A stretch of DNA of 64,000 nucleotides from assembly GCF_044324875.1 (NCBI RefSeq), contig NZ_CP172186.1; one strand, given 5' to 3'. The position numbers were made by a program. This stretch comes from Escherichia coli. Lineage in GTDB: Bacteria; Pseudomonadota; Gammaproteobacteria; Enterobacterales; Enterobacteriaceae. Below are positions 26,301 through 29,300 of the stretch, piece after piece (the first letter of the stretch is position 1; every line of letters starts with the position of its first letter).

Positions 26301-29300
26301 TTCACATGGTTAATCACCGGCATCAGTCCGTCCGGATACTTCTGTTCATCCAGATACCAGTCGCCCAGAGCCGCATGGTCATCATTGCGCCCCTTAAACC
26401 AGCCGTCGTCGATAATGAAACGTTCAACGCCAAGCGCTGCCGCACGTCCGGCCATCTGCATGATGTAGTTCGGGTCGTGGTCAAAATAAATACCTTCCCA
26501 GGTATTGAGGTGCACCGGACGGGGTTTCTGCTCAGGAAAACGGATGATTTCATCGCGCAGAAAACGGTGGTACTGCTGACTCATACCATTGAGCCCCTCC
26601 GGGGAATAGCTGGCGTACAGCCACGGCGTGTACACGGTCTCATCCTTCTTCAGGGCTTTTTCTCCGGGCATCCACAGTGCTTCCGCCTGGAGGTAACGCC
26701 GTCCGTCAGTTTTGACCTCACATTTCATGCGATGGTTGCCACTCCAGCCCAGATGTACGGCCCACACCTCGCCCTGCTGTTCTGAGAAACCGGGGGCACC
26801 GGCAATCAGTGCCGGAAAATGCTCATGGGACGTGCGGCCCCGGCGGTTCTCCAGCACAAAACCGTCATGTGTGAGACGGACCCTGTGCGGCTGAAACTCA
26901 CGAGTCCAGCGTCCGTGGAAGGCCATGACTTCCTCTGCCCTTTCAGCCACAGGGAGCGTGATGGCGAAGCGGTTCACCTGCCAGTCCCCTTCACGGAGGT
27001 TCGTCAGGGCATGACGCATCTTCAGCACACCGGACGATGTCAGCACCAGTTCACTGACCATGCGCAGACCCGCCACTGCATCCTCACTGGTCAGGGTGAG
27101 TGATTCTCCGGCCTGTACCACGCTGATGGTACGGAACACAGGGGACGCATCCAGCCCGTTGCGGTGTCCCTCCAGCCCCGGCGAGCCAAAAAGTCCCGCG
27201 CCGTTTTCGGCCATCAGCGTCAGTGGGGTGTCGGTATCCAGACGACCATTCGCAACCGGCCTTTCCAGGCTGATACAGTCATCCGGTGAAAAGTGTTTCA
27301 GGGTGGATCCCCACCAGACAATCTCTGCATACGGGTGGGTTTTAATAATCAGGTCTGAGTGGGGACTGGTCAGCCTGCGGTACATCGGTTCCATAAGACA
27401 TCTCCGTTTTCGGGTATGCCTTACTGTTGATCCGAATCGTTTCGGATAGCAACCGAAACGATTCGGATTTGTGAGCGGGATTAAAAATCAGGCGGAGGGA
27501 GCAAGCGTTGTCTTGCCAGGATGAAATTCCGGCTGCCAGAGTACTTGTAGCATTTCAGGTGAAACATTCGTGACCAGCTGGCGTATCATGTCGGCAACCT
27601 GACGACCGACGCGATGTCGTGTTGACTGAAGAACTGCAGCCACATCCTGTTCAATAATACTGTCCTGCGGCAGACCATCATAAACCACAAGAGAGACGGC
27701 ATCCTCTCCGGACAGATGACCGGATAACTGCAGCGACATGGCCGCGCCATCACCGATCAGGTCACTGTCGGTAATAATGGCCGTCGGGGGAAGCGGAAGT
27801 GACATTAACTCAGTCACTGCCTGGAAACCTGAGCGTCGGGTGGGAGAGACCCGGCGTAGCCAGGTCTCAGGCAGACCATGTTCACTCAGGGCATCGCGCC
27901 ATCCCTGACGTCGTGCAGTGACATAGGTACGGGAGTTGTCCTCACTCAGCAGGGCAATTCGCTGATGGCCCAGGGCAATCAGGTGCTGTGTGGCCTGCCA
28001 GGTTCCTGCATGGTTATCAAAGTCAAACCAGGCACAGGGAAGACCGGACGGCACCTGACCGAGTGCCAGAAACGGAATACCGGCCTCCTGCAGGTGTGTA
28101 AGACGCGGGTCATTATCCAGCGTGTGCGCCACGATAAGGGCATCAACCCGGCGGCTTTCGACCAGACGCATATAGCTGTGGCTGTCAGCCCGTTCATCAT
28201 CGGCTATCAGCAGTAAGTCAATATCATGGCGGGCCAGTTCCCGGCTGATACAACTGACCATATCCACAAACACACTACTGCTGAACAGTACAGCATGTTC
28301 AGGGAAGACCAGGCCGACCGCATCGGTTTTACCGGTTTTGAGACGTCTTGCCAGGGTATTCGGGCGATAACCACGACGCCGAGCTTCCGCTTCTACACGT
28401 GCACGGGTCGAAGCGGAAACGTCCGAAAATCCGCCAAGCGCCCGGCTGACTGTGGTGACAGAGATCCCGAGTTCGGCGGCGATAGCCTTGAGTGACATAT
28501 TTTCTCCTGCGGATAACCGAACAGCCCTGTCCCTGATGCGGGTGATCCGGGCAACAAACCTGACAGAGACGCCTGCATAAGTGGTCGCGCTGTACCAGTA
28601 TGAGCCTCCATCATCCTGATTTGTGTATTAACTTTCAATACCGGAGGACGATTTGATTACCGGTTGTTAGCAGGAGTGCGAATATTAGACCGACGGTGGA
28701 GATCTAAGACTCAGTGAGCATAGCGATACACTATATTACTGTAATTAAGCCAGTAAACTTCCTGTTCACTGGCTTAAACGCTAATGATGTATGCAGTTGA
28801 ACAAGCTTTTAAACTAATGATTAATTGATATATGAGCTGGCCCCCTGAAACACCAGACAGTAGATGTATCTTAAAATAAGAGGTAGGCTTGGATATATGT
28901 CTAACACTAGTTCTAATTTTGAGATGGCTGGCGTTTTGTTAGGAAAAGAGGTGCGTAAACGTAAAACACCTCAGGAAAAAATCGCAATTATTCAACAGAC
29001 TATGGAGCCAGGCATGACGGTGTCTCACGTGGCGCGTTTGCATGGAATTCAGCCCAGCCTGTTGTTTAAGTGGAAAAAACAATACCAGGAAGGAAGTCTC
29101 ACTGCTGTGGCTGCGGGTGAAGACGTTGTTCCTGCTTCTGAACTGGCCGCTGCGATAAAGCAGATTAATCAGCTTCAGCGTTTACTGGGCAAGAAAACAA
29201 TGGAAGTTGAGCTCCTCAAAGAAGCGGTGGAGTACGCGCAATCGCGAAAATGGATAGCGCATGTGCCCTTGTTACCTTCGGACAAGGAATAGCCCCGGTA

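Follow-up and report, generated by a model that had tools for sequence, protein, structure and literature searches.

The 93-bp spacer between rafR and rafA (positions 27395-27487) of the 64-kb window, as we call the whole stretch of Escherichia coli DNA analyzed here, is very probably the control region of a raffinose operon, and its two palindromes O1 and O2, the known raf twin operators, are predicted to be bound by RafR. Twin raf operators have been known before; those of the window differ by three base changes and belong to a diverged allele.

Operators and a probable promoter in the rafR-rafA spacer

The genes, the predicted promoter, and the other features described below lie on the minus strand unless stated otherwise. 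The rafR gene (27488-28498, stop codon at 27490-27488) is an ORF of 336 aa for a LacI/GalR-family repressor. Its product contains a Pfam LacI helix-turn-helix domain (residues 3-47) followed by Peripla_BP_1, its NCBIfam matches were to the LacI family, and the exact RafR sequence of the window is named "HTH-type transcriptional regulator rafR" in one source. It is located upstream of rafA and transcribed co-directionally with it. The first gene downstream of the twin operators, rafA (25268-27394, ATG at 27394), encodes a GH36 α-galactosidase of 708 aa with the Pfam domains Melibiase, Glyco_hydro_36N, and Glyco_hydro_36C. Further downstream, rafB (23936-25213) encodes a LacY-type permease (LacY_symp) and rafD (22509-23939) a GH32 invertase (Glyco_hydro_32N/C), and a terminator-like hairpin (22499-22479) is found directly after rafD. 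As evident from the ORFs and the domain searches, the gene order rafR-rafA-rafB-rafD is that of a raffinose operon. The flanking genes had already been named rafR and rafA in an earlier reading made from the sequence only, and the LacI helix-turn-helix and Peripla_BP_1 domains of the one and the GH36 Melibiase domains of the other confirmed these names.

The upstream operator O1 (27451-27468) reads ATCCGAATCGTTTCGGTT and has seven of nine dyad pairs, and the promoter-proximal operator O2 (27430-27447) reads ATCCGAAACGATTCGGAT and has eight of nine; both have a central CG. They are separated by a gap of 3 bp (GCT), and the distance from center to center is 21 bp. The sequence-only reading had quoted two strings from this region as reverse complements 5 bp apart. 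Both are indeed present on the plus strand, TCCGAATCGTTTCGGA at 27431-27446 and ACCGAAACGATTCGGA at 27452-27467, separated by the 5 nt TAGCA. Their complementarity is near-exact, as TCCGAAACGATTCGGA, the reverse complement of TCCGAATCGTTTCGGA, shares 15 of 16 bases with ACCGAAACGATTCGGA. The perfect repeat is offset from the quoted strings by one base and consists of two 16-nt arms (27430-27445 and 27453-27468) that are 100% complementary and 7 nt apart. The two elements can equally be read as a direct repeat with a spacing of 21 nt. Both descriptions are true because each element is an imperfect palindrome with a central CG. For the same reason, each 16-18-mer is deduced to be a complete operator comprising two half-sites, so that the term "half-sites" originally applied to them was wrong.

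The inverted repeat formed by O1 and O2 is beyond chance. Nowhere else in the 64-kb window is there a perfect 16-nt inverted repeat whose loop is ≤20 nt long. Block shuffling, repeated 100 times, never produced one, and even arms of 14 nt were counted only 0.01 times on average. When the window was searched with the idealized operator TCCGAAACGTTTCGGA at ≤3 mismatches, O1 and O2 were the only two matches, compared with 0.30 expected. No further RafR-type site was found elsewhere in the 64-kb window, including the regions upstream of rafR and of a porin gene. A typical site of the LacI family is an even-length palindrome of 16-22 nt with a central CG pair (PMC4052901), and O1 and O2, as even palindromes with a central CG, fit this LacI/GalR-family form. 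The hallmarks of the RafR regulog were found as well, namely palindromes of about 18 bp with CG in the rafR/rafA spacer, a 21-bp spacing, a match to the consensus, and the DNA-reading head of RafR.

A -35-like hexamer, TTGCTA (27447-27452), spans the gap and is made up of positions 17-18 of O1, the 3-bp gap, and position 1 of O2. The candidate -10 element AACAGT (27423-27428) abuts O2, which would thus fill the spacer between -35 and -10, and CAACA(G/C)T right after O2 is strongly conserved. TTGCTA and AACAGT with an 18-nt spacer formed the top local σ70 pair, with 7 of 12 consensus matches; CAACAG (27424-27429) with a spacer of 17 nt is an alternative -10. The same combination, a -35 across the gap and AACA(G/C)T abutting O2, was the best local σ70 match in 44 of 59 distinct orthologous sequences. 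A generic promoter scan did not call any promoter in the rafR-rafA spacer, because the -10 match is weak; a weak -10 is what would be expected of an activator-dependent promoter.

Such an activator may be CRP. A CRP-like site, TTTAATCCCGCTCACA (27470-27485), deviates at two positions from TGTGA-N6-TCACA, and its TCACA half (27474-27470) stops 1 bp short of the start of O1 at 27468. CRP-like matches with two mismatches occurred 26 times in the window, compared with 29.5 expected, i.e. at chance frequency; the assignment of this site to CRP therefore draws only on its position and on its cross-species conservation, GATCAC(A) at this place being among the most conserved columns in the 59 sequences. 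If transcription starts near 27416, the center of the CRP-like site would lie at about -61.5, a class I-type position. Taken as a whole, the sequence-only proposal of paired LacI-family operators around a -35 region is supported by the palindromes with their CG, the 21-bp register, TTGCTA across the gap, and the conservation across species.

Conservation of the twin operators

To analyze the conservation, a degenerate twin-operator pattern, unconstrained in the gap, at O1 position 14, and at the ±2 positions, was run against a genome set with one representative for each species. The scan yielded 73 loci, and about 55 Enterobacterales species were represented, among them members of the genera Enterobacter, Klebsiella, Raoultella, Lelliottia, Leclercia, Kluyvera, Buttiauxella, Pantoea, Dickeya, Serratia, Providencia, and Moellerella. 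At the Enterobacterales loci, the sites adjoin a RafR homologue (55-70% amino acid identity) and/or a RafA homologue (53-80%). The remaining loci are scattered, non-enterobacterial, and devoid of raf genes, and most probably represent chance matches.

From 59 distinct orthologous sequences, the consensus of O1 is ATCCGAAACGTTTTGGTT and that of O2 is ATCCGAAACGTTTCGGAT, a perfect 18-bp palindrome. The invariance in this set is partly given by construction, because the search pattern fixed many operator positions. Positions that the pattern left free were still near-invariant: O1 position 8 is A in 56 of 59 sequences, and position 11 is T in all 59. The flanking ATC and TT/AT are conserved; variation is seen in the 3-bp gap and farther upstream. 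Loci retrieved by BLAST, and thus independently of the pattern (L001-L004 and L081), show the same twin sites. The spacer was also aligned with four diverged loci, located on an Escherichia albertii plasmid, two E. coli plasmids (one of them K88), and a Klebsiella quasipneumoniae plasmid. In this alignment, the operators, the TTG of the -35 element, and CAACAGTAAG were conserved and the flanking DNA had diverged; for the Klebsiella record, the operator region was the sole part that BLAST could align.

On the protein side, the recognition helix of RafR, SVTTVSRAL, is invariant in all homologues, the hinge YRPNT-x-ARRLK is near-invariant, and so are residues 1-60 in general. The same operator specificity is therefore expected throughout, the window allele included.

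The window allele and its variant operators

In a plasmid collection, eight records matched the region at ≥99% and 155 more at about 79%, and the window is thus deduced to represent a diverged raf allele. RafR of the window shares 78-80% identity with RafR of the common raf plasmid alleles, which differ from the window by about the same measure in DNA (~79% identity over the region), and 66% with the Klebsiella homologue. The raf spacer was found in 679 of 5426 complete E. coli genomes (~12%) as two alleles that are ~79% identical; about 249 records are of the window type, mostly chromosomal, and 448 are of the classical type. UniRef applies the name "HTH-type transcriptional regulator RafR" to a protein resembling that of locus L001 and not to the window protein, and it is suggested that the characterized RafR of pRSD2 belongs to the L001-like cluster rather than to that of the window. 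Compared with the L001 allele, the window operators differ at positions 8 and 14 of O1 and positions 2 and 11 of O2, and the -35-like hexamer is TTGCTA in the window and TTGATA in L001.

The window operators agree with the consensus at 33 of 36 positions, the three differences being A8T and T14C in O1 and T11A in O2. The window type of operators has AATCG/CGATT with TTTCGG; the consensus type has AAACGTTT with TTTTGG. Each of the ±2 changes, A8T and T11A, breaks the dyad of its own operator, and jointly they keep O1 and O2 complementary. T14C abolishes a near-universal asymmetry of O1, in which this position is T in 51 of 59 sequences. As a net effect of the three changes, positions 1-16 of O1 are the exact reverse complement of positions 3-18 of O2. 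One dyad pair is lost at ±2 in each operator of the window, so that their affinity could differ from that of the characterized operators.

The window allele is the only one found with a non-consensus ±2 base in both operators. Single, uncompensated changes were seen at two other loci, A8T in O1 only (L021) and T11G in O2 only (L063), showing that the ±2 position tolerates change and that the pairing of O1 with O2 is not generally maintained. A parsimonious history of the window operators would be a point mutation in O2 (T11A) followed by a single hairpin-templated (quasipalindrome) conversion of O1 that introduced A8T and T14C together. Evolutionary intermediates, i.e. a variant at O2 position 11 combined with a consensus O1, were not found in a metagenome scan; it returned six loci, all of the window type, three of which carry an additional C3T in O1. 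Co-variation of the operator center with RafR residue 49 (L/Q/F) was considered and rejected, as F49 occurs with O1 A8T in L021 and L49 with consensus operators in L007, L023, and L030.

Alternative readings, mode of action, and known systems

The perfect 16-bp stem invites the reading that the inverted repeat acts mainly as RNA. With its 7-nt loop, about 20 nt past the rafR stop codon, it would form in transcripts reading through from rafR and could terminate or pause transcription or stabilize the 3′-end of the rafR mRNA. The stem is the main element of the fold predicted for the spacer (-38.3 kcal/mol, z = -5.5), the terminator scan found no other terminator-like site between rafR and rafA, and all three window-specific changes keep or improve the pairing of O1 with O2, A8T and T11A by compensation and T14C by turning a G-T into a G-C pair. 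However, the stem is followed by CAACAGUAAGG without a U-tract, a pattern that does not conform to an intrinsic terminator, and the terminator scan called none in the spacer. Any palindrome present twice will pair with its copy, and separate selection for the stem is not needed. Moreover, each element retains its internal dyad (7 to 9 of 9 pairs), which a single long hairpin does not require, the pairing is broken without compensation in other species (L021 and L063 as given above), the T at O1 position 14 in most sequences is a mismatch at the DNA level, and the loop of the stem carries the conserved -35-like TTG. A mainly RNA-based function is therefore considered very unlikely, and an RNA role of the O1:O2 stem as a side effect is possible.

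Binding of the palindromes by a regulator encoded elsewhere, whether of the LacI family or of a different kind, is less probable still. The AAxCGxTT core is generic to the LacI family (PMC4052901, PMC2978694), and the pattern was also found beside more distant LacI-family genes without a rafA neighbor (L056, L022, and L045). Nevertheless, the twin sites in about 55 species directly adjoin a rafR homologue with the invariant recognition helix. Plasmids and chromosomes exchange the raf cluster as an island that includes rafR, in keeping with a self-contained pair of repressor and operator, and the lack of a further copy of the site in the window speaks against a foreign regulator. Intergenic palindromes are common in enterobacterial genomes, and a chance or selfish palindromic element of the REP or MITE kind, with no regulatory role, might be envisaged. 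This reading is hardly credible in view of the single occurrence in the window, the constant placement with respect to rafA across many genera, and the conservation of the arms while the gap varies. The only Rfam match in the spacer, to a microRNA precursor, was below threshold (32 bits versus a gathering score of 81) and was judged to be a spurious, generic hairpin hit.

A second potential RNA structure lies in the leader of rafA (27395-27424), where a hairpin is predicted in which AAGGCAU (27422-27416) pairs with AUGUCUU (27401-27395). The Shine-Dalgarno sequence GGAG (27405-27402) would be in its apical part and the 3′ arm between the Shine-Dalgarno sequence and the AUG. The minimum free energy is -13.2 kcal/mol (z = -4.67). 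When 12 divergent orthologous leaders were folded one by one, this topology was predicted for all of them, with arms of differing sequence. Covariation was counted on a hand-named structure. In alignment A3, 17 cells were changed on both sides, compared with 7.2 ± 2.8 in shuffles (none of 500 reached 17), and 73% of the cells pair, compared with ≤54% for slid partners. RNAalifold did not return a consensus structure for the MAFFT alignment of the rafA leaders, because the register of the stem shifts between lineages. With the predicted -10 element, transcription from the raf promoter (rafP) would start within or after the 5′ arm, and the hairpin might therefore exist only in RNA reading through from rafR and be lacking from mRNA initiated at rafP. 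That the spacer additionally encodes RNA devices, the 16-bp O1:O2 stem and the leader hairpin, that act only on rafR read-through transcripts appears rather doubtful. If true, the leader hairpin would insulate rafA translation from constitutive transcription of rafR.

In the preferred reading, repression by RafR through O1 and O2, one RafR dimer would bind to each operator (O1, 27468-27451; O2, 27447-27430). Because the centers are 21 bp, or two helical turns, apart, both dimers are expected on the same face of the helix. With both operators occupied, the -35 region and the spacer would be closed to RNA polymerase and rafABD would be switched off; contact between CRP and the polymerase would probably be blocked, too. 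An α-galactoside inducer, melibiose or raffinose, would release RafR, and CRP-cAMP next to O1 could then assist the weak promoter. The binding of RafR, its response to the inducer, and the role of CRP are inferred here from homology and from earlier experiments with the pRSD2 allele.

The raf operators are textbook material for adjacent operators of the LacI family; they were first described around 1990, and biochemical work on them dates from 1990-1994. Aslanidis and Schmitt (1990), Aslanidis, Muiznieks, and Schmitt (1990), and Muiznieks and Schmitt (1994) reportedly described the 18-bp palindromes of pRSD2 that flank the -35 box. The raf operon of pRSD2 shares with the window the order rafR-rafA-rafB-rafD, two adjacent palindromic operators around a -35 element, which is a candidate in the window, and a LacI-family repressor; its inducer is an α-galactoside, and the same may be presumed for the window allele. 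The gal operators OE and OI of GalR and the lac operators O1, O2, and O3 of LacI are likewise palindromic sites of LacI/GalR-family repressors, with more than one operator per promoter for full repression. However, gal and lac operators are tens to hundreds of base pairs apart and act by DNA looping, whereas the raf operators are adjacent at 21 bp and directly cover the -35 element and the spacer. Judged from its sequence, RafR with its 336 aa appears to be without an obvious C-terminal tetramerization helix of the LacI type.

For the RafR regulog of the Enterobacteriales, only double sites 21-22 bp apart, located upstream of raf genes, are given (Ravcheev et al. 2014, PMC4052901). The architecture in the window is identical, and the double sites were reproduced in about 55 species by our scan. 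The experimental papers on the two raf operators appear as references 45-47 in PMC13056197. A text search of the literature for the operator sequences found nothing relevant.

The window thus holds little new biology with respect to the raf operators as such, which were the subject of biochemical studies in 1990-1994 and of a comparative genomic catalogue in 2014. What is added here is that a correct identification from sequence was borne out, that E. coli harbors two raf alleles, that one of them carries a natural operator variant, and that a leader hairpin is predicted, which, if real, would constitute a small new layer of raf regulation. The window operators vary naturally at the central ±2 positions and at O1 position 14 of an otherwise near-invariant consensus, and they could be used directly to test how the hinge region of RafR reads the operator center.

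Setting and variants of the raf island

The window matched the APEC O1 plasmid record NC_009837.1 with ~99% identity over ~90% of the query. It is thus similar to large avian-pathogenic E. coli virulence plasmids (window 1-64000; 36000-60000), and such plasmids carry tsh, an autotransporter, and iron-uptake genes. The raf island was also found on E. coli chromosomes (locus L080) and on an IncK2/Z plasmid (locus L078), and IS elements bordered it in every case.

The chromosomal E. coli version of the window allele is the commoner one (212 records at 95-99%). As represented by locus L079 (3001-3093), it differed from the window spacer by a single base at window position 27429, immediately after the promoter-proximal operator O2, where TAACAGT replaces the CAACAGT of the window. 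This difference alters the candidate -10 region. In a sub-variant of the window-type allele on three metagenome contigs (L084, L085, and L086), the upstream operator O1 reads ATTCGAATCG. The sub-variant carries C3T in O1, at an operator position that is invariant elsewhere; this change weakens the outer half-site of O1 as well as the complementarity between O1 and O2.

Genes and signals flanking rafR and rafD

An IS3-family element of the IS2 type, with orfA/orfB (28864-30131, plus strand), lies ~370 bp upstream of rafR. Because two sigma-70-like promoter-like sites (28757-28730 and 28638-28610, both on the minus strand) are situated between this element and the rafR start, rafR expression could depend on the junction.

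On the other side, a block of genes (18796-22445, minus strand) follows rafD on the same strand and encodes a crr-like EIIA-Glc protein (21930-22445), two DUF2913 ORFs, a PfkB-family sugar kinase (20392-21318), and a RafY-like LamB-type porin (18796-20292). As a terminator-like hairpin (22499-22479) follows rafD, the block may constitute a transcription unit of its own.

Predicted rafA leader hairpin and other inverted repeats

A conserved hairpin was predicted for the rafA leader (27395-27424, minus strand) with the arms AAGGCAU and AUGUCUU, the 3' arm being flanked by the Shine-Dalgarno GGAG and the AUG. Predictions for divergent enterobacterial leaders gave this topology in 12 of 12 cases, with differing arm sequences, e.g. 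CCUCAUC/GAUGAGG in Dickeya and AAGGCC/GGUCUU in Kluyvera, and covariation counts were higher than in the controls. The 5' arm may contain the predicted transcription start, in which case the modeled hairpin might exist only in RNA reading through from rafR.

The window's remaining short-loop inverted repeats with a perfect 12-nt match occurred at four places: 58816-58839, 61543-61585, 61733-61757, and 18765-18790. The last, positioned immediately beyond the stop of the porin gene, may serve as the terminator of that gene.

Twin palindromes outside raf

The pattern of twin palindromes, with two copies of CCGAAACGTTTCGG in a 21-bp register, was also seen at L056 (Affinibrenneria) and at L022 and L045 (Rhodobacterales). 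The LacI-family genes adjoining these three loci are more distant (49% and 32% identical to RafR), and a rafA neighbor was absent beside the palindromes. The double-site architecture thus extends beyond raf.
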